A stretch of DNA of 64,000 bases, from positions 160,001 through 224,000 of the forward strand of contig CAXXLF010000002.1 of NCBI GenBank assembly GCA_963664015.2, given 5' to 3'. The DNA comes from Candidatus Binatia bacterium (lineage in GTDB: Bacteria; Desulfobacterota; Binatia; UBA9968; CAXXLF01). The notes under the pieces are model-generated. The model saw nothing but the letters and a program-made list of their open reading frames with translations. It did no database searches and was not told the DNA's origin. Numbering within the stretch: the first letter of the stretch is position 1; every line of letters starts with the position of its first letter. Position numbers and translations under genes: made by a program. Below, piece after piece: positions 1 to 62,795 of the stretch.

Positions 1-141
1 ACCACCAAAGCCGCCGCAGATCAATACCGCCCCTTGTTCGGCAATGGCCTTACCAACGGATTCGGCAAGAGCAAGGGTGGACCTATCTGCATCGGTTCCG
101 CCTACCACAGAGATCTGAAGAAACTTGTTTTTTTGCGCCAT
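1..141 (-). CDS. TIGR00725/LOG-like Rossmann-fold protein, 5' part only (runs off the window edge)
   Basis: Manual translation from ATG at 141: MAQKNKFLQISVVGGTDADRSTLALAESVGKAIAEQGAVLICGGFGG; the ISVVGG...GAVLICGGxGG pattern fits this family. Confidence 0.75.
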   Translation of the reverse strand, partial: MAQKNKFLQISVVGGTDADRSTLALAESVGKAIAEQGAVLICGGFGG

Positions 142-212
142 AGAAGCCCCTCATCAATAAGAGTATTTTGATCGGTTGACTTTTCCCCCCAGCAATCTAT
201 TCTATAGAGACT

Positions 213-725
213 TTGATGGAATCCCCACAACAAAAACTAGCATCTAATTATGGCGAAGAGAAACTTCTCGCCGATGGGGTGGTGCTTACCCGCTTGGACA
301 AGGCTGTTGGCTGGGCGAGAAAGTATTCCATATTCCCATATCCTTTTGCCACGGCCTGTTGCGCAATGGAATTCATGTCTCTGACCATGGCTCCTTATGA
401 TATCGATCGATTTGGTGCCCTACTCCCTCGTTTCAGCCCACGCCAGGCCGATCTTCTTATGGTTATTGGAACTGTAAACCATAAGCTGTCACCTGTCCTC
501 AAGCGAATCTATGAACAGATGGGGGACCCCAAGTGGGTCATGGCATTCGGAGCTTGTGCTGCAAGTGGTGGTTTTTATGATAATTATGCCACGGTACAGG
601 GCATTGACCGCATTATTCCCGTGGATGTTTACGTCCCCGGCTGTCCCCCTCGCCCGGAAGCGGTTCTCGATGGGCTCATGGAACTTCAAGGCAGGATTGC
701 CCGGCAGAAACATCCACTGAGATAG
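213..725 (+). CDS. nuoB: NADH-quinone oxidoreductase subunit B (stand-alone copy)
   Basis: TACCAME, SPRQADL, GACAASGG and YVPGCPPRPE motifs; four N2-cluster cysteines present. Confidence 0.95.
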   Translation: MMESPQQKLASNYGEEKLLADGVVLTRLDKAVGWARKYSIFPYPFATACCAMEFMSLTMAPYDIDRFGALLPRFSPRQADLLMVIGTVNHKLSPVLKRIYEQMGDPKWVMAFGACAASGGFYDNYATVQGIDRIIPVDVYVPGCPPRPEAVLDGLMELQGRIARQKHPLR

Positions 726-741
726 AAAAGTCCAGCCGTAA

Positions 742-1068
742 ATGGCAAGCTCCGATGAAGGTGAAGCGCTCCAGGATATTCTGGGTAATATGGACCTGTT
801 CTACCACGGCGTCATTGTAAAGCTGTTTCCTAGAAACAACCTGGGAATTGTCCGTACCGCAAGCGGTCGTGAGATAGCCTTCGCGTACAATTTGGTCATT
901 GTTCTGAGTGATTCTCAGGATCCCAATGATCTGAAACAAGGACAAAAGGTTGGGTACGACCTGGGCTGGACGTCCAGCGGACTCAGGGTGACAAAGATCA
1001 AGGTCTACCCGGAACCCGGCGCTGAAGAGAAACCACCGAATCTAGAGGGGCAAGGTAGTCAAGGATAA
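742..1068 (+). CDS. small cold-shock/OB-fold-like hypothetical protein
   Basis: 16 bp after the nuoB stop; beta-strand pattern HGVIVKL..GIVRT..GREIAF..LKQGQKVGYDL resembles a CSD fold but lacks the canonical RNP aromatics. Confidence 0.6.
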   Translation: MASSDEGEALQDILGNMDLFYHGVIVKLFPRNNLGIVRTASGREIAFAYNLVIVLSDSQDPNDLKQGQKVGYDLGWTSSGLRVTKIKVYPEPGAEEKPPNLEGQGSQG

Positions 1069-1872
1069 GAGCTGCCTCCCCAATATCTCGCCGACTACGA
1101 CTCCCAACAAGGCAATATAAAAGAGACCGGTAGCCGCCATGGTGTTGGGTATCTTTAACGTCTGCCAAATCATATAGGATAGGATGAGTGGCCCCACCTG
1201 GGAGACACACAGCCTCGCAGCAAGCAAGAAGAAGTGGTCGTTCCACAATTTTTCGACTCCTTCGACCGCCTGCGGCGCCCCCAAGAAATAGAGTACTGCT
1301 GGTGCAAAGACCAGGAATGAAGTGTGGATAATGAGCACCACCACAAAAAACCTGAATACACGGAGAAAGGGATCCAAGCTTTGGCCGGCATCGATCAGAT
1401 ACCAATGACCTATCAGCATACCTACCGTGACAGCCCCAAGGAGGAGCGATGAGAGCAGAAAACTGAAGGGGTATAGAACAGTCTCGATAGATCCAATGGG
1501 CGCATCATGAAAACCGAAGGACGTGAGAACCAGGCCCGCAAGTCCAAGAAGTAACGCCGTTGAAAAGGCCCTGGCCCGAATCCACACGCGCTCCCCCCAC
1601 AAGGACACGAAATATATCAGAATGAGTACGACAAACAGGATGAAAATCGATAGATCGATCGTGGCCATCAAGCCATCGCCCGGCAGGTAGGACTTCAGAT
1701 AGAGGTCCACCTTGCCCCATAGGGCGAGGAGAGCCATGACCACGAGAACCCCGGTTGTTGATTTATAAAACCCTCGCTCCAAATCCTGGAATGGCGTTAC
1801 GGCCAATGCAAACAGCCCTCCCAAGGAGACTTGCTGTAAAAGAAAGAGAAAGCTAACTGGGTAGGTTTTCAT
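1042..1872 (-). CDS. multi-pass membrane protein (GHWYL motif), function unknown
   Basis: About 8 hydrophobic segments; start at 1872 overlaps the ubiE stop (ATGA). Confidence 0.75.
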   Translation of the reverse strand: MKTYPVSFLFLLQQVSLGGLFALAVTPFQDLERGFYKSTTGVLVVMALLALWGKVDLYLKSYLPGDGLMATIDLSIFILFVVLILIYFVSLWGERVWIRARAFSTALLLGLAGLVLTSFGFHDAPIGSIETVLYPFSFLLSSLLLGAVTVGMLIGHWYLIDAGQSLDPFLRVFRFFVVVLIIHTSFLVFAPAVLYFLGAPQAVEGVEKLWNDHFFLLAARLCVSQVGPLILSYMIWQTLKIPNTMAATGLFYIALLGVVVGEILGRQLLSLTTLPL

Positions 1873-2597
1873 GGTTTGTGTGGCTTTTGCGCAATGTGAA
1901 GGCAAACAGCTCCTCGAAGAAATCTCTCGATTCTAATTCCCTTAAAGCCCGCATTAGCGATCACTTCAGCAATGCTCTCTGGGCCAGCGAAACCCTTGAC
2001 CGATTCTGAGAGATAACGATAGGCGCCTCCATGGCGGGTCAGGCCGGCTCCGATCCATGGCACCAGACGAAAAAAATAGAGCGAATAGAAGACATAGAAA
2101 AGACCCTTGCGGGGGGGGAACATGTCCAGAGTGGCTAACCGTCCTCCGGGTTTCAAGAGACGGTAAGCCTCGACAAAGAAAAGATTGAGGTCAGAGACAT
2201 TTCGCAAAACGAAGCCCGTCATGACAGCCTCGAAACTATTGTTCTTGAAGGGGGCTGCAAGGGCACTACCCAGGACGAACAGGGTCTTATCGCCACCCGT
2301 ATGATTTTTCTTTTTAGCATTGGCTAATTGGAGCATTTTCGGTGCAAAGTCCAATCCGACCACCCTGCCCTCGGCTGCGAGTCCATTGGCTGCTGTAAAG
2401 GCCAGGTCTCCGGTTCCGCTCCCTAGGTCCAAAATGTTTACCTTTTTCTCCGCGAGGTTAAGGCTTTTTACGGCCTTCTTGCGCCAGATGGTATCCAGAT
2501 GAAAACTGATTATCCGGTTGAGAAGATCGTAACGGCCGGCGATTCTATCAAAGATCTGCTGTACAAATCTTTCATGCTGGTTTCTAGGTGAAGGCAT
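1869..2597 (-). CDS. ubiE: ubiquinone/menaquinone biosynthesis C-methyltransferase (UbiE/MenG)
   Basis: FDRIAGRYDLLN, LDLGSGTGD (SAM motif I), FVLRNV, AYRYLSESV. Confidence 0.92.
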   Translation of the reverse strand: MPSPRNQHERFVQQIFDRIAGRYDLLNRIISFHLDTIWRKKAVKSLNLAEKKVNILDLGSGTGDLAFTAANGLAAEGRVVGLDFAPKMLQLANAKKKNHTGGDKTLFVLGSALAAPFKNNSFEAVMTGFVLRNVSDLNLFFVEAYRLLKPGGRLATLDMFPPRKGLFYVFYSLYFFRLVPWIGAGLTRHGGAYRYLSESVKGFAGPESIAEVIANAGFKGIRIERFLRGAVCLHIAQKPHKP

Positions 2598-2635
2598 GGC
2601 CCGATTGTGGAGACCAAGGGCAGACGGGGATAAGG

Positions 2636-3721
2636 TCAGAAATCCCTTTCGACAATGAGACGAGCCAGGCTCTCGAGCCCGTTTCGATAGATGGATGGTT
2701 CAAGCTTCTCAATAAGTTTAGTGGCCTCAAGGGCGTATCCCTTGGACATCACTTTAGCCTGGTGAATGGATTTACCTTGCCTCATAGCCTCGATGGCACC
2801 TTGGATACACAACTCGGATGGATGCGGCGATTCAAAGGCCTCCATAACGGTTTTCTCTCCTTCATTAACCGATAAAACGATCGGCAATGACGGATTCCCG
2901 TCTCGAAGATCCATGCCAATAGGCTTTCCCAGCAACTCTTTGTGGCCTATCACATCCAGGACGTCGTCAATCATCTGAAAGGCCATCCCCAGGTTGAGAC
3001 CGTATTCCTTCATCTGTCGGATGGACTCGTCCCCTCCATCGGCCATGTAGGCCCCGAGTTGGGCCCCAGTCTGGAACAATGAGGCGGTTTTGCGTTTGAT
3101 AATCCGTAGATAATCTTCGAAAGTAACCGTCCTGTTACGGTTAAATGAACTCTGAAGCATCTCCCCCTCAGTCAAACGTGTGCACGCATCAGCAGTCCAC
3201 TGAACCACCGTCTCGTCGAATTTTCCGGCAAATTCGAAGGCCTTAATAAACAGGAAATCACCCGTGACCAGCGTCGATTTGAGCCCAAATTTCTTATAGG
3301 CCGATTCTTTCCCTCGTCGCACATCGGCGCCGTCGATAATGTCATCGTGAAGCAGGGTGGCTGTATGAAGGAGTTCCAGGGCGGTAGCGATGTCAACCAT
3401 CTCTTCCGTTCGGGTGCCGCCGCATGCCTTGAAAGCGAGCAAGGCCACGAGCGGGCGGACCCTTTTCCCCCCGCTATCGATCAGGTGAGCAGAAATCTCC
3501 GTCAATGTCCGTTCGCTTGAGCGAATAGATTTTGCCAGATTTTTTTCGACCAGATCGAGCTCGGTGGCAAGGCAATCGAATAGATCCTCCGACTTCATCG
3601 GTAGGTCGGTCGAGTTTTGCCCATTGCTTAAAGGGACGGTGTTTTGCATCTGATTAATATTAGGTGTGGGTGCCGGTTGAGCTCCCCGCTCTGTATCGGT
3701 GACAATGGCAAAAAGTGGCAT
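2636..3721 (-). CDS. long-chain polyprenyl diphosphate synthase (IspB/HepT-like); true start may be near 3598
   Basis: GGKRVRP, ATLLHDDIID (small residue 5 before the first Asp-rich motif indicates long chain), KTASLF, FQMIDDVLD. Confidence 0.9.
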   Translation of the reverse strand: MPLFAIVTDTERGAQPAPTPNINQMQNTVPLSNGQNSTDLPMKSEDLFDCLATELDLVEKNLAKSIRSSERTLTEISAHLIDSGGKRVRPLVALLAFKACGGTRTEEMVDIATALELLHTATLLHDDIIDGADVRRGKESAYKKFGLKSTLVTGDFLFIKAFEFAGKFDETVVQWTADACTRLTEGEMLQSSFNRNRTVTFEDYLRIIKRKTASLFQTGAQLGAYMADGGDESIRQMKEYGLNLGMAFQMIDDVLDVIGHKELLGKPIGMDLRDGNPSLPIVLSVNEGEKTVMEAFESPHPSELCIQGAIEAMRQGKSIHQAKVMSKGYALEATKLIEKLEPSIYRNGLESLARLIVERDF

Positions 3722-4020
3722 ATATCCATAGCCAGGTCAAGCTGAACCTCTAGCGACGGAGCCGAAACCGGTGGCAATCGAAAAGCCCTACCCCTGTCCC
3801 CCACCCGAGGGCTGGGCGTTAGATCGAATGAAAGGTTGATGGGTTGCTGGCGCTCGTTCTTCATCCTGAAGAATCCCATCGCCTCATCCGGTTTGCAGAA
3901 GTTGCTGGCAACTTGGATCTCTAAAGGTGCCTAGTCTCGTATTTTCCCTTGACAACTTTGCACCAAGCTTAATATATAGGGAACGTAGTCAACATTAACA
4001 GGGGACGAAGGAGGCCGTTC

Positions 4021-4716
4021 ATGGAAGCTTATCTCTTTATTTTGCGTTGGATTCATTTCCTTTCCGGTATTACGTGGATTGGCATTCTCTATTATTTTAA
4101 TTTCGTACAGACACCGTTTTTTGCAGAGACCGAGGCTCCGGTTAGAAGCGGTGCCGTTCAAAAATTGGTCCCTCGCGCTCTCTGGTGGTTCCGCTGGGGC
4201 GCCATGTTTACCTTCTTGTCAGGCATTCTGATGTATATGCACAAGCTGGCAGAGGTGGGAAGCTCCATCTATTTCGCTTCCCCTTACGGGCTGGCAATAA
4301 CCATAGGCGGAACGATGGGAACACTGATGTTCCTGAATGTTTGGCTGGTGATCTGGCCCGCGCAAAAGGTCGTGATCGCTTCGGCGGTTCAGGTTGCTGA
4401 GGGTGGACAAGCCATTCCCGAGGCCGCCCGCCGTGCCCGGAGGGCTTCGCTTGCATCAAGGACCAATACGCTGTTTTCGATTCCCATGCTCTTCTTCATG
4501 GGCGCCGCCAGTCACTATCCTTCAATCGGTGCGGCAATGGGATCGGCAACAGGATTTTGGGTTGTCGCTCTTGGGATTATTGCTGTCGTGGAACTGAATT
4601 GTCTAGTGGGGACCCAGGGCGCTGCCAAGAAGCCTTTGGATTCGGTTTCGGGTACCATTTGGTCAGGTTTTCTGCTGACTCTGATGCTCTGGCTGGTCTT
4701 CAGGTTCCTCTTATAA
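4021..4716 (+). CDS. urate hydroxylase PuuD-like (DUF989) membrane protein without a cytochrome c domain
   Basis: RWIHFLSGITWIGILYYFNFVQ, WWFRWGA, MFLNVWLVIWPAQK, SRTNTLFSIPMLFFM; GGAGG RBS. Confidence 0.8.
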   Translation: MEAYLFILRWIHFLSGITWIGILYYFNFVQTPFFAETEAPVRSGAVQKLVPRALWWFRWGAMFTFLSGILMYMHKLAEVGSSIYFASPYGLAITIGGTMGTLMFLNVWLVIWPAQKVVIASAVQVAEGGQAIPEAARRARRASLASRTNTLFSIPMLFFMGAASHYPSIGAAMGSATGFWVVALGIIAVVELNCLVGTQGAAKKPLDSVSGTIWSGFLLTLMLWLVFRFLL

Positions 4717-4735
4717 TAGAGGAGTCTGCGGGCGC

Positions 4736-5086
4736 TCAGCGAAGATAGACTGCAATGTCCGGAATCGCTTTTCTGAGGTGCGGAAAGGCCGGCATGGCAA
4801 CAGACTTGCGCTTGGGAACATAACCAAGAGGATATTTTCGGTGGAGGATTCGGGCCTCCAGTAAAACCTGGGAAGATCCTTTAAGGGCTGGTCCCGTTGG
4901 TCCATCCTTCGCCGGGTCCCTGTTGTGGCAGGGGGTACAGTTTACTAGGAAGAGTTTCCTTCCCCGGTCCGGATTGGGGCCTTGGGTCGATGCTGTCTTG
5001 TTATTCGAATCCCCGAAACAAGCCATCAGGCCCATTACGAGACAAAGAGAACTCAGAGAAAGATATATAGAAGTTCGACCGAGCAC
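4736..5086 (-). CDS. monoheme cytochrome c, probable lipoprotein
   Basis: Hydrophobic N-terminus with LMAC lipobox-like motif; CTPCH heme site; distal MPAF. Confidence 0.85.
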   Translation of the reverse strand: MLGRTSIYLSLSSLCLVMGLMACFGDSNNKTASTQGPNPDRGRKLFLVNCTPCHNRDPAKDGPTGPALKGSSQVLLEARILHRKYPLGYVPKRKSVAMPAFPHLRKAIPDIAVYLR

Positions 5087-56876: not shown

Positions 56877-57905
56877 TCAGGCGGTAGAAGCCTGTTTTTT
56901 CCCCTCGGCTAACCCCATTGCAACCTCGACGATCTGGTCCTCCTGTCCTCCCACCAGCTTACGCTTGCCGATTTCCACCAGGATGTCCCTGGCCTCGACG
57001 CCAAACTTTTCGGCCGCCCGGTCCGCGTGCAGCAGAAAGCTGGAATAGATCCCCGCGTATCCCATAGTCAGGCTCACCTTGCCGATTCGTACAGGCTTCA
57101 GCATCATCGGTCGCACCACATCTTCGGCCACATCCATGATCTTCCACATATCGATGCCTGTGTCATACCCCAATTTGTCCAGCACCGCTGAAATGACTTC
57201 CGTCGGGGTATTTCCCGAACCGGCTCCTAGCCCACAGGTGCATGCATCGAGCCAGCGGGCCCCCTCTTCAATCGCAGCAACCGTGTTGGCCACCGCAAGC
57301 GAGAGGTTGTTATGACCGTGAAATCCGATATCGATCTTGACAGATGCTCTTAGGGCTGCGATTCGCTCCCTCGCCGTATGGGGCATGAGGGCACCAGCCG
57401 AATCCGTGACGAGGACCACGTCTGCCCCGTAACTTTCCACCAGTTTTCCTTGTTCGGCGATCTTTTCAGGCGAGCCCATGTGGGACATCATGAGCATGGA
57501 GATCACCTTCATGCCCATCTTCTTGGCCAGGCCGATGTGCTGCTCGGCGATATCCGCTTCGGTTACATGGGTCGCAATCTGCGCTACTTTTGCTCCAAAA
57601 TCAGCGGCCATTTTCAGATCTTCTTTGGTCCCGATTCCAGGGAGAAGCAACACGGCTAGCTTGGCCCTCTTGATTACGGACGCAGCCGCTTTGAGCAGCT
57701 CCATTTCAGATTGCTTCGAGAAACCGTAGGTAACCGTTGAGCCTCCGAGCCCGTCTCCATGAGAGACCTCGATGATCTCGAGGCCGGCCTCATCCAAACC
57801 TTTAACCACCTGCATCACCTGCTCAGCCGTAAACTGATGGGCCAGGGCATGGCTTCCATCTCTTAACGTGCTGTCTAGAATATGGATCTTGGTCATCTCG
57901 CTCAT
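56877..57905 (-). CDS. mhpE: 4-hydroxy-2-oxovalerate aldolase
   Basis: [49 protein letters not shown]. Confidence 0.96.
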
Positions 57906-58828
57906 ACCCGTGCCTCCATGGTCTCCTTTTTTTGCCAGGTCCCTGCTACCAGGTGTTTGCCGATTTCTTCTCCCACCTTTACGGCAGCCGAGGTCATGAT
58001 GTCCAGGTTTCCCGCATACTTGGGTAGATAGTCGCCGGCTCCCTCCACTTCGACAAAGACCGTGACCTTCTTTTTCCCCTTGCCACCGGGAAAATCCTCA
58101 ACCAGTGGTTTGGCCTTGAGTCGATAACCTGCAACGTACTCCTGGGTCCGTCGGACCATCGCTTCAATGGATTGCCGAAGCTTCTCTGGATCCGCTTCTT
58201 CCACAATACCGTAAACCGTGTTTCTCATTAGGACGGGCGGCTCCGCCGGGTTCAAGACGATAATTGCCTTGCCGCGGCTCGCCCCGCCGACAGTTTCCAA
58301 CCCGTGGGCGGTCGTGTTCGTAAACTCGTCGATATTTTGCCTTGTCCCCGGCCCGGCGCTCTTGCTCGCGATGGATGCGACGATCTCAGCGTATTCGACC
58401 GGTGCCACCTGCCCCATGGCATGGACACAGGGGATCGTGGCTTGCCCACCACAGCTGACCATATTGACGTTGGGCTCGCCGACATGCTGGTTAAGGTTCA
58501 CCAGCGGTACCACGTAGGGCCCGATTGCTGCCGGCGTCAGGTCTATGGCCACCTTGTTGGCCTTTTTGAGCAGCGGCGCATGCTCCAGATGGGCACTTGC
58601 GGTGGTCGCCTCAAATACGATATCGAACTGGTCCGCAAGGGCAAGAAGCCCCTCGATCCCCTCATGAGTTGTGACCAACCCATTGTCCCTCGCCCGTGCC
58701 AATCCCTCCGACTCGAGTACGATACCAGCCATCACGGTGGCATCCAGGAATTTGCTCCGCTTCAGTTTGTGCATAAGATCGGTGCCGATATTCCCGGAAC
58801 CTAAAATTGCCACTCTTGCGTTCTCCAT
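57902..58828 (-). CDS. mhpF: acetaldehyde dehydrogenase (acylating)
   Basis: [41 protein letters not shown]; GGAGGA RBS. Confidence 0.96.
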
Positions 58829-58862
58829 GAACTCCTCCGATAAAATTTTCAAGTAAACTAAT

Positions 58863-59654
58863 TTAGATAAATCGTACTGAGACCGTGCCTAACCCATCAA
58901 AGTTAGCACGAATTGTATCTCCTGGAGCCACATCGGCAGCGGCGCAAAGGGCTCCCGGCATGATGACCTCGCCGGCTTTCAGGGTCACACCGAACTCTCC
59001 TACCACGTTGGCCAGCCACGCAACGGCGTTGGCCGGGTGACCCAATGCGGCTGCGCCGGCACCGGTCTGAACCACTTCGCCGTTCTTTTCCATCACCATA
59101 CCTATCAGCCTGAGATCCACCTGATCCACACGCCGAGGGGTCTCGCCTAAAACGATACGGGCAGATGACGCATTGTCCGCAATGGTGTCACTGAGTTTGA
59201 TCTTCCAACTCTCGAACCGGCTGTCGATAATCTCCAGTGCTGGAAGGACAAAGGCCGTAGCCGCAAGGACCTGGACAGTCGTCACTCCCGGTCCTTTTAA
59301 ATCTTTGTCCAGGATGAAGGCGATCTCGGGTTCGATTCTCGGCTGTATCAGATCTTTGGCTGGGAATTGGGCCCCGTCTTGCAAGACCATGCCGTCCAGG
59401 ATATGCCCGTAGTCCGGACTATCCACGCTGAGCATCTTTTGCATGGCCGTGCTCGTGAGGCCGATCTTTTTCCCGACTACCTTTGCCCCGTCCTTTTTCT
59501 TCAGCTCTATAAGCGAGAGCTGGATCCGATAGGCGTCATCGGGAGCGATGCCCTCGTATTGCTCGGTAAATTGACGGATCGGCCGACGTTCTTTTTCGGC
59601 GACGTAGAGGTCCTTCGCCGCCTTTTCGATAGACTGTTCATTCAGGCTGGCCAC
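58863..59654 (-). CDS. mhpD: 2-oxopent-4-enoate hydratase
   Basis: [46 protein letters not shown]. Confidence 0.93.
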
Positions 59655-59839
59655 GTGTTCAACCCTCCTCTATCTGCGTGAATATATAAAAGGTGAGAAT
59701 GCCTACCTGATTCCCTACCAAGGGAGCTTTTCCGGGTCAAGACAAACCCCTAACTCCTTATTAAAGCGCCCCAAGCATAGCCTTTTATAAAGGACGGGTC
59801 CAGGTCTAGCCCCACAGACACAACCGGAACAAGATTGCT

Positions 59840-59938
59840 CGCGCAAAGAACCCAAAGGGCGCAAAGTTCGCCAAGGTAGGAAAATTTAGGATCTAGGAAA
59901 TTGTATTTCCCTTTGCGAGCTTGCCCGCCTTGGCGCGC
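59840..59938. repeat. degenerate 9-bp-period (nnGCAAAG-like) inverted repeat, MITE-like
   Basis: CGCGCAAAG AACCCAAAG GGCGCAAAG TTCGCCAAG ... CTTTGCGAG CTTGCCCGC CTTGGCGCG. Confidence 0.5.
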
Positions 59939-60330
59939 TCTTCTTCGCCCAGAACGGTGGGGCTAGCCGCTTGGATATCGAATCGATGGCGGTCACCCCC
60001 CGACAAGGAATTCCATAACAGGAGATAGTCGAGTGTTTTATTTCAGACTTGCGACACTTGCGTGTCTTCATCAGTAATATGGTTCGGACCTGATATCTCT
60101 TATTTAAGAATTTGTGTAGAGGGATCACTGGAGCGATAAAACTTTTCGAAATCTTATCCTTGGAAGTGGCCCCAAGTTGACATATAAATGGATACCATCT
60201 TGTACTCCTAGGCCAAGGGTGGGTGAGTCGGCTATCGTTGGATTCTTGTTGACTATATTTAAAAAACAAGCTCTATTAAGTTCTAGTTATTTCCGATCAG
60301 AATGAAGGGGTTGCGTTTTGTGATTAAGCT

Positions 60331-62301
60331 ATGCTAACCGATGCCGCCTTGAATCTCACCGATTGGGGTTTCTGTCAGCGGTCGCTGAAGGAGGTCTCCC
60401 GTACTTTCAGTCTACCCATCGCAATGTTGCGCGAGCCGCTCGAGCAAGCAGTCACCTGCGGTTACCTACTCTGTCGAATTGCCGATACCATTGAGGACGA
60501 GCCCAACCTTGGGCTGGCAGAGCGGGACGCCCTCTTTTCGTCGTTCCTCGCCTGCCTGGAGGATGAGGCTTCAGCGTCGGCCCTCGCAAGCCGGTTCCCT
60601 GATAATGACCAAAAACCGGCGAGTGCCGAGCGTCGACTTATGCAAAATCTGCCGCGCCTCCTTGGCGTCTTCGCCGAGCTGAACGATACAGCCAAGCAAG
60701 CGATTCGACGAAGCGTGTGCGAGATGGTCCGCGGGATGGCCATCTACAACCGGCGCCCTGCCGGTACAGATGGAATCGTGGCATTGACCACGATCGCCGA
60801 CCTCGAACGTTATTGCTACTTTGTCGCAGGGACGGTTGGGCACATGCTTACCGACTTGTTCACGTCCACCTGCGATCTCGATGCTGAACGGACCCACACC
60901 TTGCGCACCAACGCAGAGGAGTTTGCCGTTGGCTTGCAGCTGACCAACATACTCAAGAACATCACTGAGGACTGGGAGCGCGGCGTCTGCTATGTCCCAC
61001 GCACGATCTGCAAGGAAGCGGGCCTCGAGGTTGCGGAATTGTTGCAACCGGACTCCCGAGAGCGAGCCCACATGGCACTAGCTCCCCTGTTCCAAAGAGC
61101 CGAGCGCTCGTTCGAGCATGCACTCACCTACTGCTTGGCGATCCCGGCTGTGGAGCGGGACATGCGCCTGTTTTGTCTCTTGCCCTTGTGGATGGCGGTA
61201 CGCACCCTTGCCTACGCCCGGAGAAACGACGCACAGATCATCCGCGGCCAGGAAGTGAAGATTTCACGTGCAGAGGTCGAGCAGCTGATCCAGGATTGTG
61301 CCAACCATGTGGACAACGACGAAGCGCTACGCGCCAGTTTTCACCGCCTGAATCGGGACCCCCTGACCATCACAGCACCCCGCCGGAGCACGGCCATAGT
61401 CGAGACGTCGACCGAGTTGATGAGCAGCTACATGACTGCTAGGCGGGAGCTTGTTGAAAAAGCTCTGGACCTATCGCTCCCGAGCGGGGCGACGCCCTAC
61501 CAACTTGCCGACGCGGTTCGCTACCCGGTACTGGCTGGCGGTAAACGGTTGCGGCCAATCCTGGCAATTGCGGCTGCGGAGTCCGTGGGGGCCACCGCGA
61601 ACGACGCGATGTTGCCAGCGCTTGCGGTCGAGCTCATTCACACCTATTCGTTGGTGCACGACGACTTACCGGCCTTGGACAACGACGATCTGCGTCGGGG
61701 CAAGCCAACCACTCACAAGGTATACGGCGAAGCGATGGCAATTCTTGTCGGGGACGCGTTGCTGACCCGTGCTTTCGAGCTACTGGCAGATCCGGCGCTC
61801 TCAGAGCGCATCGGATCCTCCCGAGCCATTCGTCTCGTTTATGAGATCTCATCTGCTGTAGGAGCCCACGGTATGGTAGGCGGGCAGGTCATTGACATCC
61901 TCTCCGACGGACAACAGCTCGACACCGACACCCTCATACGCTTGCACCAAATGAAAACTGCGGCACTCCTGCGCACATCTGTTGTAGCGGGCGGTATCGC
62001 GGGCCGCGCCACCGATGAGCAGCTCAGACAGCTAGCGATTTACGGCGAGCGCATCGGCCTCGCGTTTCAGATCGTCGATGACATCCTCGACGTTACCGCT
62101 ACCACCGAAAAGCTCGGCAAGCCGCAAGGCAGCGATGAGCGCCACCGCAAAGCAACATTCGTAACGGTACTTGGCATCGAGGTCTCCCGCCAGCGAGCCA
62201 AGCAGCTTATCGAAGAGGGGAAAGAGGCGATCAGTTCATTCGGGAACGATGCTCGTGTGCTTCATGCGCTGGGGGACTTCATCGAAGAGCGGACCCACTA
62301 A
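60331..62301 (+). CDS. fusion of a squalene/phytoene synthase-family domain (N) and a short-chain FPP/GGPP synthase (C)
   Basis: N: VSRTF, YLLCRIADTIED, YCYFVAGTVG, GLQLTNILKNITED, RLFCLLP, KISR. C: GGKRLRP, YSLVHDDLPALDNDDLRRG, GQVID, KTA, FQIVDDILD. One uninterrupted 656-aa frame. Confidence 0.9.
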   Translation: MLTDAALNLTDWGFCQRSLKEVSRTFSLPIAMLREPLEQAVTCGYLLCRIADTIEDEPNLGLAERDALFSSFLACLEDEASASALASRFPDNDQKPASAERRLMQNLPRLLGVFAELNDTAKQAIRRSVCEMVRGMAIYNRRPAGTDGIVALTTIADLERYCYFVAGTVGHMLTDLFTSTCDLDAERTHTLRTNAEEFAVGLQLTNILKNITEDWERGVCYVPRTICKEAGLEVAELLQPDSRERAHMALAPLFQRAERSFEHALTYCLAIPAVERDMRLFCLLPLWMAVRTLAYARRNDAQIIRGQEVKISRAEVEQLIQDCANHVDNDEALRASFHRLNRDPLTITAPRRSTAIVETSTELMSSYMTARRELVEKALDLSLPSGATPYQLADAVRYPVLAGGKRLRPILAIAAAESVGATANDAMLPALAVELIHTYSLVHDDLPALDNDDLRRGKPTTHKVYGEAMAILVGDALLTRAFELLADPALSERIGSSRAIRLVYEISSAVGAHGMVGGQVIDILSDGQQLDTDTLIRLHQMKTAALLRTSVVAGGIAGRATDEQLRQLAIYGERIGLAFQIVDDILDVTATTEKLGKPQGSDERHRKATFVTVLGIEVSRQRAKQLIEEGKEAISSFGNDARVLHALGDFIEERTH

Positions 62302-62588
62302 TATATTGTGTTCCTTGACCACTCAAGCAGAAAGATTCTCCCGACTCCGCCCCTCATACTTACCCGTCTAAGACTTCCAGGCGCGATTTCATTAGGCGCT
62401 ACCTCTAATTTGGCTCAAAACCGGTATGGGCTTGGGTTTGCTCGGCATTAGATCCCCGGAACGCATTTAATGAGCTAATCTGTTGCGTCTTACTGATATA
62501 AGGATCGAAGGAAATGACGAGAGCCTGCTCATTCCGTGTTAAGAAGAAATGGACAGTCGCAATGAGTTACCGGGGCTTTTGCGTACGC

Positions 62589-62795
62589 TTACGCGTCAGG
62601 ACACGGCGATCGCGGGCGTAACCGACCATAGCGGAAGGACGGGCTTTTATCGTGCTTTGTTGGCCCCTCCTTTTGGCGAACCGTGGAGGTCCGAATCACG
62701 CTCTGCATCACCTTGATCTGCTGGTCTATCCTTGCTCTCAGTGCCTGCAACTCTCGCAAAACTCCCTTGAGGGTTGGAGTGAAGTTGATGGCCAT
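62589..62795 (-). CDS. small hypothetical protein with an N-terminal coiled coil
   Basis: Strong GAGGAGGA RBS; TTGACA at 62837-62842 on the minus strand; amphipathic LRELQALRARIDQQI. Confidence 0.55.
   Translation of the reverse strand: MAINFTPTLKGVLRELQALRARIDQQIKVMQSVIRTSTVRQKEGPTKHDKSPSFRYGRLRPRSPCPDA

Follow-up and report, generated by a model that had tools for sequence, protein, structure and literature searches.

Chain-elongating prenyltransferases tethered to the consumer of their product are known from fungal chimeras such as fusicoccadiene synthase, which combine a cyclase with a synthase of GGPP or GFPP, and from artificial fusions of farnesyl-diphosphate (FPP) synthase (FPPS) with squalene synthase (SQS), which were built to raise squalene yields. 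The gene described here has the same general plan but arose naturally, pairs the prenyltransferase with a head-to-head synthase as the consumer and apparently also provides the cell with its only FPP. Single-enzyme SQS (Sqs/FDFT1/Erg9; structures 7wgh, 3asx and 1ezf) ends in a C-terminal membrane anchor, in place of which the present protein has a linker and an FPPS domain. Other fusions with SQS, reverse-order and triple ones among them, also exist in bacteria: PT-SQS (P0192, P0214), HMG-CoA reductase-PT-SQS (P0202) and squalene epoxidase (SE)-SQS (P0021, P0116, P0144) likewise join SQS to a neighbouring pathway step, but each carries its SQS at the C-terminus, none comes from the lineage of the window (the whole stretch of 64,000 nucleotides that was analysed, to which positions refer unless another contig is named), and the prenyl synthase of the PT-SQS proteins has the motif DDLQD with no insertion.

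A dedicated FPPS is also coupled to SQS in the FPPS-SQS-SHC clusters of six related genomes (G009, G017, G023, G035, G037, G039), as separate genes with FPPS first and squalene-hopene cyclase (SHC) after; four of them, G009, G017, G035 and G037, have overlapping FPPS and SQS orfs, with an overlap of 4 nt in the first and the last. The FPPS and SQS of these clusters fall in other clades than the domains of the fusion, and these genomes retain a housekeeping ispA as well. The natural IDI-SQS fusion of a diatom, PtIDISQS, as it is described in PMC12168105, resembles the present protein in joining SQS to an upstream isoprenoid enzyme, but the partner is an IPP isomerase rather than a prenyl synthase, the organism is a eukaryote and the domain order is different. 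No natural bacterial SQS-FPPS fusion, described or characterised, was found in the literature, in agreement with the preliminary description, which knew of no characterised bacterial example; the words 'fusion' and 'fused' are not used of Sqs in the main texts of Hoshino & Gaucher (2021, PMC8237579) and Santana-Molina et al. (2020, PMC7306690), the supplements of which might list domain architectures.

Structure of the fused gene

The features of the locus, with the evidence for each, are as follows.

59655..60330, + strand: AT-richer intergenic region of 676 bp, presumed to hold the promoter (G+C 0.43-0.46 over 59950-60399)
60331..62301, + strand: fused gene, 656 codons plus stop (ORF list; two Pfam domains in one protein)
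60385..61272, + strand: SQS_PSY domain, squalene-synthase type, aa 19-314 (Pfam PF00494, E 6e-49)
60484..60498, + strand: first Asp-rich motif of the SQS domain, D52-T-I-E-D56 (alignment with human DTLED)
60958..60972, + strand: second metal-binding motif of the SQS domain, N210-I-T-E-D214 (homologue alignment)
61333..61425, + strand: inter-domain linker, aa 335-365, with a disordered core at aa 344-358 (AlphaFold2 pLDDT, dN/dS)
61438..62298, + strand: IspA-type farnesyl-diphosphate synthase domain, aa 370-656 (NF045485, PF00348, Foldseek)
61645..61680, + strand: chain-length Tyr439 and first Asp-rich motif D444-DLPAL-D450 of the FPPS domain (read from the sequence)
62077..62091, + strand: second Asp-rich motif of the FPPS domain, D583-D-I-L-D587 (read from the sequence)
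2636..3721, - strand: long-chain trans-prenyl synthase, the genome's only other one (PF00348; present twice owing to a contig-end duplication)

The preliminary description of a single orf of 656 aa that carries two class I isoprenoid folds was accurate: the gene matches the ORF list exactly, a TAA stands two codons 5′ of its ATG, and SQS_PSY and polyprenyl_synt (PF00348, aa 392-629, E 2.6e-57) lie in one protein. The frame, which that description proposed to check across the linker, is open and contains no stop. Three public runs, belonging to two studies and including one that may be the source sample, yield contigs that cover positions 60001-62600 with 0 differences and 0 gaps; a diverged seawater strain has the orf without an indel, and the orthologues of two other genomes (G002 and G004) align without gaps across 656 codons. 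The fusion is thereby confirmed as a real single gene and not an assembly slip. Purifying selection acts on both domains, with dN/dS of 0.14-0.19 in the N-domain and 0.13-0.15 in the C-domain across three genome pairs, but it is relaxed in the linker (0.52-0.89). A frameshift within the FPPS domain of one metagenome copy (P0140 plus P0134) and the loss of ~80 residues from the same domain in another (P0124), which may be assembly errors or true defective alleles, would suit an artefact of assembly or annotation, or a pseudogene in decay, but the identical contigs over the whole gene, the recurrence of the full architecture in other genomes and clusters, and dN/dS well below 1 leave this explanation with practically no probability.

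The linker (aa 335-366) is rich in T, R, P and S, as had been noted. In the AlphaFold2 model, pLDDT is below 50 at aa 344-358 and aa 341-359 form a coil, so that a disordered part of ~19 aa lies between two confidently folded helical domains, which it would tether. The sequence and length of the linker vary among three groups of fusions. A disordered, nearly neutrally evolving linker with two Met codons (Met364 and Met368) at its C-terminal end is what might be seen if two separate enzymes were produced, by internal initiation at either Met or by linker cleavage, the fusion then being only a device for transcriptional and translational coupling. This is quite unlikely, as there is neither a stop before Met364 (61420) nor a Shine-Dalgarno-like sequence in the 15 nt before 61420 or 61432, and the frame stays open in different genera and in fusions that are 40-49% identical and have different linkers. 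As a natural SQS-first fusion with a defined linker, tuned by evolution, the protein offers a test of the benefit of tethering and is a candidate part for engineering.

No sigma-70-like site was found on the + strand before the gene, scans for promoters and terminators gave nothing above chance, and no Rfam match at E <= 0.1 was obtained around the gene. Its neighbours are meta-cleavage pathway genes, glpX, a phosphoglycerate mutase gene and genes of unknown function; no hpn, crt or sterol gene is among them, as the preliminary description had observed. Among the orfs within ~8-14 kb of the fusion in the window's genome (G000), G002 and G004, no homologues besides the fusion itself are shared, and the Pfam families of the neighbours are unrelated to terpenoids. 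Genes for an MMPL/sterol-sensing protein and a DUF1302 protein beside the G002 fusion were considered and set aside, having no homologue in G000 at E 1e-10.

Predicted activities of the two domains

The fused gene probably encodes a bifunctional enzyme that proceeds from IPP and DMAPP through FPP to squalene, acquired by horizontal transfer and serving also as the housekeeping source of FPP. The C-domain, being of the IspA type, is predicted to condense DMAPP with two IPP to give FPP. It scores 351.4 bits with the NCBIfam model NF045485 FPPsyn, above the cut-off of 275, and 339.1 bits with the CrtE GGPP synthase equivalog, under the cut-off of 460; its model superimposes on Escherichia coli FPPS (1rqj) with a TM score of 0.92 and an rmsd of 1.9 (Foldseek). 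An aromatic residue five positions before the first Asp-rich motif directs synthesis to a C15 product. In the chain-length region of the C-domain, IHTYSLVHDDLPALDNDD, Tyr439 stands five residues ahead of D444 and the first motif is DDxxxxD, with the two-residue insertion, as stated in the preliminary description, which took these features for a signature of C15/C20 products; the domain carries the FPPS signature. The solved FPPS 5ayp has HTYSL at this place, like the fusion, whereas the cyanobacterial CrtE GGPP synthases 6sxl and 6sxn have HTMSL. Y439, D444, D445 and D450, and D583, D584 and D587 of the second Asp-rich motif, are invariant in 10/10 aligned fusion proteins. The C-domain thus resembles IspA (1rqj, 5ayp) in passing the FPPsyn cut-off, in both Asp-rich motifs, in the insertion and in the Tyr at -5, but it sits behind an SQS domain and outside the xseB-ispA-dxs locus. 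Since FPP synthases are dimers, the holoenzyme is probably a dimer bearing two SQS domains.

The N-domain would act as a single-enzyme, 'eukaryote-type' SQS, joining two FPP head-to-head into presqualene diphosphate and then reducing this intermediate with NADPH to squalene. It matches PF00494 with 167.5 bits (cut-off 26), and its best NCBIfam head-to-head model is TIGR01559 squal_synth, with 131.8 bits, below the cut-off of 286.75. The best PDB matches, each over aa 14-326, are 7wgh, a chain titled squalene synthase (E 8e-24), and human SQS (E 3e-18). The similarity to single-enzyme SQS, to the solved members of which sequence identity is low, includes the fold over this range, the DTxED first motif (D52, E55 and D56 being invariant in 190/190 homologues), Y161 (190/190) and F281 (186/190), which align with human Y171 and F288, Q203, N206 and a VKI(S/T)R stretch. 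The catalytic positions R24, F26, Y45, R49, D52, E55, D56, Y161, Q203, N206, D214, R217, F281 and K310 hold residues that are invariant or dominant in the family. Among the nearest homologues of the N-domain (50-57% identity) are many SQS-SE fusions, with or without cyclase repeats, and because the SQS of an epoxidase-fused protein must make squalene, the N-domain is expected to make squalene too.

Carotenoid synthesis starting from a CrtM-like or CrtB-like activity, with dehydrosqualene or phytoene as the product, has to be weighed here. A weak lead towards it is a CrtO-like flavoprotein of the CrtI family (G000:C2:767055-768665), whose orthologues in the remaining two genomes with the fusion are 74% identical, against paralogues of only 31-33% identity in the two fusion-less members of the family; this gene lies among aromatic-catabolism-like genes, however, and phylogeny confounds its joint occurrence with the fusion. 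The N-domain matches the models of the alternative head-to-head synthases over part of its own length and reaches none of the HpnC, HpnD and CrtB equivalog cut-offs: HpnD scores 70 bits (cut-off 278.6), HpnC 48.8 bits (cut-off 250.45) and CrtB 41-54 bits (cut-offs 480-550), and CrtB, CrtM, HpnC and HpnD together span 41-70 bits against 132 for the SQS model. CrtM and PSY structures match aa 153-304 only. The C-domain carries the signature for FPP, not GGPP. The first motif, DTxED, has the form DTxxD that is given for Sqs by Santana-Molina et al. (2020, PMC7306690), the other subfamilies having DDxxD. A carotenoid product is accordingly held to be highly improbable. The preliminary description had allowed either a C30 or a C40 hydrocarbon; C30, in the form of squalene, is favoured, and a C40 product (phytoene) appears unlikely with an N-domain of the SQS type and a C-domain of the FPP rather than GGPP type.

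A peculiarity overlooked in the preliminary description is that the second motif of the SQS domain is NxxED instead of DxxED. Position 210 is D in 174/190 homologues, N in 15/190 and E in 1/190, and 14 of the 15 sequences with Asn belong to the fusion's own clade; D214 is invariant across the SQS homologues, and both E213 and D214 are present in the fusion. Mutation of the first Asp of the second motif of rat SQS reportedly abolishes activity. If the Asp-to-Asn change has weakened or repurposed the SQS domain of what is otherwise a working FPPS, the reaction of the N-domain might end at presqualene diphosphate or lead to hydroxysqualene or a different C30 product, or the domain might be a regulatory one that binds FPP. 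Besides the rarity of N210, two observations are in keeping with such a loss, namely the score of the N-domain under the NCBIfam SQS cut-off and the failure to find a squalene-consuming enzyme in the genome. However, the N-domain is under selection like that on the essential C-domain, all other catalytic positions that were checked are typical of the family, the orthologue of G004 (P0004, 80% overall identity) keeps Asp at position 210, and Asn has arisen independently in P0116, an SQS fused to SE. Asn can also serve as a ligand of Mg2+ in other class I terpenoid synthases. A weakened or repurposed SQS domain is therefore considered unlikely.

Origin and distribution

The fusion is not unique: the full SQS-FPPS architecture is found in three genomes (G000, G002, G004) and in about 10 clusters at 90% identity. 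A scan of GTDB contigs for named relatives of the fusion returned stand-alone FPPS genes only, the FPPS motif having dominated the matches, and the metagenome contigs, scanned with the N-domain and linker, yielded none.

The ispA genes of the order group with its SQS-linked FPPS genes at 100% SH-aLRT support, and the C-domain of the fusion, which is only about 43% identical to the ispA of the lineage itself, lies outside this group. The SQS genes of the relatives are far from the N-domain in its tree. A foreign origin of both domains is supported by these phylogenies. The spot counts of G+C in the preliminary description, which had invoked composition in proposing horizontal acquisition, are exact (38/60 at 61501-61560 and 17/60 at 60241-60300), but composition lends little to the case: the gene as a whole, with G+C of 0.596 where ORFs average 0.550 (sd 0.027), is only at the 96th percentile, and its GC3 is at the 90th. 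As this signal is mild, base composition was abandoned as evidence of transfer and phylogeny was used instead.

P0006 and P0007 are fusions of 49% identity, and a 'Deltaproteobacteria' protein is among the 49%-identical relatives. Grouping P0006 and P0007 with the window's clade is not rejected for either domain (p-AU 0.66 and 0.99) and scores higher. The two domains probably arrived as a ready-made fusion, common to the 49%-identical 'Deltaproteobacteria' protein. The recipient, which the gene probably reached in the fused state, would have been the ancestor shared by two genera in an uncultured marine lineage whose nearest named relatives are labelled Candidatus Binatia.

Source of FPP for the cell and predicted fate of squalene

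In G000, which is 97.3% complete, PF00348 detects the fusion and one long-chain synthase only, and PF00494 detects the fusion only. The fusion is thus the only recognisable short-chain prenyl synthase of the genome and its only SQS_PSY domain. The canonical site of ispA is between xseB and dxs, and the gene is intact in relatives that have no fusion, among them G001, with an ispA of 299 aa adjoining dxs. The ispA of G000 is a pseudogene, reduced to two pieces, IspA residues 3-103 and 216-299, which differ in frame and both carry a stop; about 110 codons are missing. That of G002 is an in-frame remnant of 167 aa with an internal deletion and no second Asp-rich motif, and that of G004 is full length with its GQxxD region replaced or carrying an insertion. 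The fused enzyme has apparently taken the place of the ordinary FPPS gene: the fusion would have assumed the housekeeping supply of FPP, after which the native ispA decayed. Three stages of this decay are thus preserved in three genomes, an instance of a horizontally acquired fusion displacing an essential housekeeping gene.

With ispA a pseudogene and no other recognisable short-chain synthase, the fusion must also feed the housekeeping consumers of FPP and is more than an accessory enzyme, so that the one-protein route proposed earlier needs amending to that extent; part of its FPP must leave the protein for the synthesis of undecaprenyl, long-chain prenyl and other compounds. UppS, which needs FPP, is present in G000. 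The long-chain synthase at 2636..3721 has Ala at -5 and DDIID with no insertion, and all NCBIfam models score under their cut-offs with it, the best being heptaprenyl synthase; it is likely to be a consumer of FPP supplied by the fusion, and much less probably it might be a second source of FPP. Because the fusion also supplies housekeeping FPP, substrate channelling, which had been suggested, is implausible in its complete form; tethering would bias the flux towards squalene without full channelling.

A gene that consumes squalene was not found in G000, which counts against the preferred reading of a bifunctional squalene-forming enzyme. In the genome search that the preliminary description had recommended, the cyclase and epoxidase profiles PF13243 and PF08491 were each absent from G000 (0/1), and SHC/OSC domains were absent from all five genomes of the family: PF13249 was found in 0/5 and PF13243 in 0/5, against 8/18 for PF13243 in another family (f2; that of the fusion is f1). 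With no cyclase or epoxidase, squalene or a derivative is the likely end product. An SQS gene without a cyclase bears on the reading of metagenome SQS genes as proxies for hopanoids or sterols.

A more far-reaching proposal, put forward tentatively and with some doubt, is that squalene is tied to the sole FPP supply in one polypeptide, that uncyclised squalene or a derivative is a constitutive end product, and that the fusion is a mobile module that displaces ispA. If this is true, squalene or its derivative could be, for example, a hydrocarbon for membranes or for storage, the making of squalene and essential isoprenoid metabolism would be linked one-to-one in the protein itself, and the fusion would be a self-sufficient 'squalene module' able to displace the ispA of its host after transfer.

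Two amine-oxidase candidates were also inspected and rejected. One is HemY, encoded beside hemE, and the other is a decayed HemY-like pseudogene.

Structure and integrity of the fusion gene

The fusion gene (window 60331-62301, + strand) is a single uninterrupted ORF of 656 codons, as the preliminary description stated, with a TAA two codons upstream of its ATG. Pfam recognizes both claimed domains in the same protein, SQS_PSY at residues 19-314 (E 6e-49) and polyprenyl_synt at residues 392-629 (E 2.6e-57); T, R, P and S are indeed abundant in the linker between them, and the reported G+C spot counts (38/60 and 17/60) were reproduced exactly. An AlphaFold2 model (input alignment of 72 rows, mean pLDDT 88.9) consists of two confident all-helical domains with pLDDT below 50 at residues 344-358; their relative orientation is undefined because pTM is 0.55.

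The fusion is real and conserved, not an artefact. Contigs from three public runs in two studies, one of which runs may be the source sample, each cover window 60001-62600 without a single difference or gap, and a diverged seawater strain has substitutions but no indel within the ORF. A full-length, stop-free frame is present in three of 41 related genomes, those of the window (G000) and of two sisters (G002 and G004), all in family f1 (genera g1 and g3), and the three genes align without gaps over all 656 codons. Among them the N-domain has a dN/dS of 0.14-0.19 and the C-domain one of 0.13-0.15, against 0.52-0.89 for the linker; therefore both halves are under comparable purifying selection while the linker evolves almost freely. 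Ahead of Met364 (61420), the start of the second gene if there were two, there is neither a stop nor a Shine-Dalgarno-like sequence. On metagenome contigs, one copy of the G004-like fusion (P0140 and P0134) is split in two by a frameshift that follows GGK in the FPPS domain, and another copy (P0124) lacks about 80 residues of that domain; these are either assembly errors or defective alleles.

The FPPS domain, IHTYSLVHDDLPALDNDD, bears the claimed chain-length signature, Tyr439 at position -5 relative to a first Asp-rich motif DDxxxxD, and its second Asp-rich motif is FQIVDDILD. The chain-length position is also Tyr in the solved FPPS 5ayp, versus Met in the solved cyanobacterial CrtE GGPP synthases 6sxl and 6sxn. 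The C-domain scores 351 bits against the NCBIfam FPP synthase cut-off of 275 and 339 bits against the CrtE GGPP synthase cut-off of 460, thus above the former and below the latter, and its fold matches that of E. coli FPPS (1rqj) at a TM score of 0.92.

The best model for the N-domain is the squalene synthase equivalog TIGR01559 (131.8 bits, under the cut-off of 286.75); the HpnD, HpnC and CrtB models give only partial matches of 41-70 bits. Residues 14-326 align with 7wgh (titled squalene synthase) and human squalene synthase, and only residues 153-304 with structures of CrtM and phytoene synthase. Across 190 aligned homologues, the catalytic positions D52, E55, D56, Y161, Q203, N206, D214, R217, F281 and K310 are present and conserved; the sole exception is Asn210, which opens the second Asp-rich motif, where 174 homologues have Asp, 15 Asn and one Glu. 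The main doubt about the protein, judged unlikely, is that Asn210 in this metal-binding motif has left the SQS domain catalytically weakened or repurposed beside a working FPPS. Fourteen of the 15 Asn carriers belong to the window's own clade, the G004 orthologue retains Asp, and the fifteenth carrier is an unrelated SQS fused to squalene epoxidase (P0116). Among the nearest N-domain homologues (50-57% identity), many are likewise the C-terminal SQS of squalene epoxidase proteins, with or without cyclase repeats; since such proteins must make squalene, they support it as what this SQS clade produces. Large bacterial proteins of this kind, often with cyclase repeats, include P0019-P0118, P0144, P0021 and P0116, several of them labelled Myxococcota.

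Loss of ispA and the proposed reaction

In G000 (97.3% complete, two contigs), PF00494 matches only the fusion, and PF00348 matches nothing but the fusion and a single synthase of long-chain type; the genome also encodes UppS, an enzyme that takes FPP as its starting substrate. The prenyl synthase loci besides the fusion are:

Window 2636-3721: long-chain-type prenyl synthase, with Ala at -5 and DDIID
G000:C1:544061-544611 (outside the window): ispA pseudogene between xseB and dxs

The long-chain synthase is counted twice because contig C1 opens with 12,742 bases (G000:C1:1-12742) that are 99.99% identical to the reverse complement of G000:C2:152105-164845, overlapping window 1-4845; the copy is either an assembly overlap of contig ends or a real large inverted duplication.

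The canonical locus order is xseA-M23 peptidase-xseB-ispA-dxs-tlyA. In G000, what remains of ispA is a pair of fragments in separate frames, corresponding to IspA residues 3-103 and 216-299 and each containing a stop, and about 110 codons have been lost; in G002 it is a 167-aa in-frame remnant without the GQxxD, KT and second Asp-rich regions; and in G004 it is full length, with an insertion replacing the GQxxD region. In the fusion-less members of family f1, ispA is intact (G001, 299 aa, followed by dxs) or gives an uninterrupted match (G003). That ispA bears a different lesion in each of the three genomes with the fusion argues for an active C-domain that made ispA dispensable.

Judged from sequence, the fusion is probably a bifunctional enzyme that converts IPP and DMAPP via FPP to squalene and doubles as the cell's only FPP synthase. 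The C-domain would condense IPP and DMAPP to FPP and the N-domain would convert FPP to squalene, with part of the FPP leaving for other pathways. Because a housekeeping FPPS has to release FPP to those pathways, substrate channelling, put forward earlier as a possibility, is unlikely to be strict. Comparable architectures are the prenyltransferase-cyclase chimeras of fungi and FPPS-SQS fusions made by engineering.

Origin and distribution

Trees were computed with IQ-TREE at a quick setting. The N-domain tree has 85 rows, omitting near-copies P0121-P0141 and retaining 23 of the 112 rows with SQS behind another domain; the C-domain tree has 72 rows, comprising 26 fusions or relatives and 46 stand-alone hits (the 25 closest, then every third one thereafter), and omits P0172, P0235 and one duplicate locus. 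In the C-domain tree, a single clade (100% SH-aLRT) unites the order's canonical ispA genes, those of G001 and G004 among them, with its SQS-linked FPPS genes and leaves the fusion's C-domain outside, and the relatives' SQS genes are remote from the fusion in the N-domain tree; therefore, both halves are foreign to the lineage. The proposal of horizontal acquisition is thus upheld by both trees, with composition adding only a mild signal: the G+C content of the fusion is 0.596 versus an ORF mean of 0.550 (sd 0.027), at the 96th percentile of 1405 ORFs, and its GC3 is at the 90th percentile.

A single N-domain clade of the ten same-order fusions was rejected (AU p 0.006, lnL lower by 97), and therefore the architecture arose at least twice. 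Constraining the window's clade together with the 49%-identical P0006 and P0007 gave, for both domains, higher likelihoods than the quick search reached unconstrained (p-AU 0.66 and 0.99), a grouping that is unproven as a clade and fits the transfer of a ready-made fusion. The three fusion-bearing genomes share no neighbouring genes besides the fusion itself.

In a collection of 5.8 billion proteins, ten of the 120 matches listed have both Pfam domains, namely the window's protein, four others at 78-83% identity, two at 49%, of which one is named 'Deltaproteobacteria bacterium HGW-Deltaproteobacteria-14', and three at 40%. Among the best 150 of an exhaustive search of 1.84 billion representatives are three same-order fusions (P0004, P0006, P0009), two reverse-order prenyl synthase-SQS fusions (P0192, P0214), an HMG-CoA reductase-prenyl synthase-SQS triple fusion (P0202) and an SQS-SQS tandem (P0194). 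Of 401 genomes sampled from the phylum, G000 alone encodes it. Runs that contain part of the gene include some labelled seawater or marine metagenome, and proteins annotated 'Candidatus Binatia bacterium' match the G000 Dxs at 88% and 82% identity.

The claimed lack of a characterized bacterial example agrees with a full-text literature search, which found no natural bacterial SQS-FPPS fusion. The main texts of the two principal evolutionary papers (Hoshino & Gaucher 2021, PMC8237579; Santana-Molina et al. 2020, PMC7306690) do not use 'fusion' or 'fused' concerning Sqs; the latter states that Sqs is readily transferred between lineages and carries a DTxxD motif, both in agreement with the fusion. 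Natural IDI-SQS fusions are described in diatoms (PMC12168105).

Fate of squalene and gene surroundings

A Pfam search of G000 found neither SHC/OSC domains (PF13243, PF13249) nor squalene epoxidase (PF08491), and none of the five genomes of family f1 has an SHC domain. Single-strand FPPS-SQS-SHC clusters are present in six genomes of sister family f2, which also have a separate housekeeping ispA:

L104-L109: G009:C241, G035:C76, G039:C4, G037:C48, G017:C65, G023:C873

Four of these clusters (G009, G017, G035, G037) have listed FPPS and SQS ORFs that overlap, by 4 nt in G009 and G037. Thus, these relatives turn squalene to hopanoid synthesis via unrelated genes, while family f1 has the fusion without a cyclase.

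The G000 genome has no phytoene synthase. One locus may bear on squalene:

L119: CrtO-like, CrtI-family flavoprotein (G000:C2:767055-768665) and DUF6062 protein (770131-770958)

The flavoprotein (74% identity) and its DUF6062 neighbour (67-69%) are kept only in the fusion-bearing G000, G002 and G004; G001 and G003 have only flavoprotein paralogues of 31-33%. The flavoprotein is the only candidate squalene-modifying enzyme, and a weak one, its context being catabolic-looking and its co-occurrence confounded by phylogeny.

Upstream of the fusion lie:

Window 56877-59654 (- strand, divergent to the fusion): DmpG-like 4-hydroxy-2-oxovalerate aldolase, acetaldehyde dehydrogenase and FAA-hydrolase-family hydratase
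Window 59655-60330: intergenic region of 676 bp, unusually long and AT-richer

The trio covers the lower steps in the meta-cleavage of aromatic compounds. The intergenic region has no Rfam match and no sigma-70-like site on the + strand upstream of the fusion, and a 127-aa minus-strand ORF within it (59886-60269) is probably spurious. In G002 (L102:11211-15585), the fusion is directly downstream, on the same strand, of genes for a DUF1302 protein and an MMPL transporter that matches a sterol-sensing domain, neither of which has a homologue in G000. Elsewhere in G000, a decayed paralogue with several stops (C1:598432-599974) resembles protoporphyrinogen oxidase, and an intact hemY adjoins hemE (C2:2015090-2016505).
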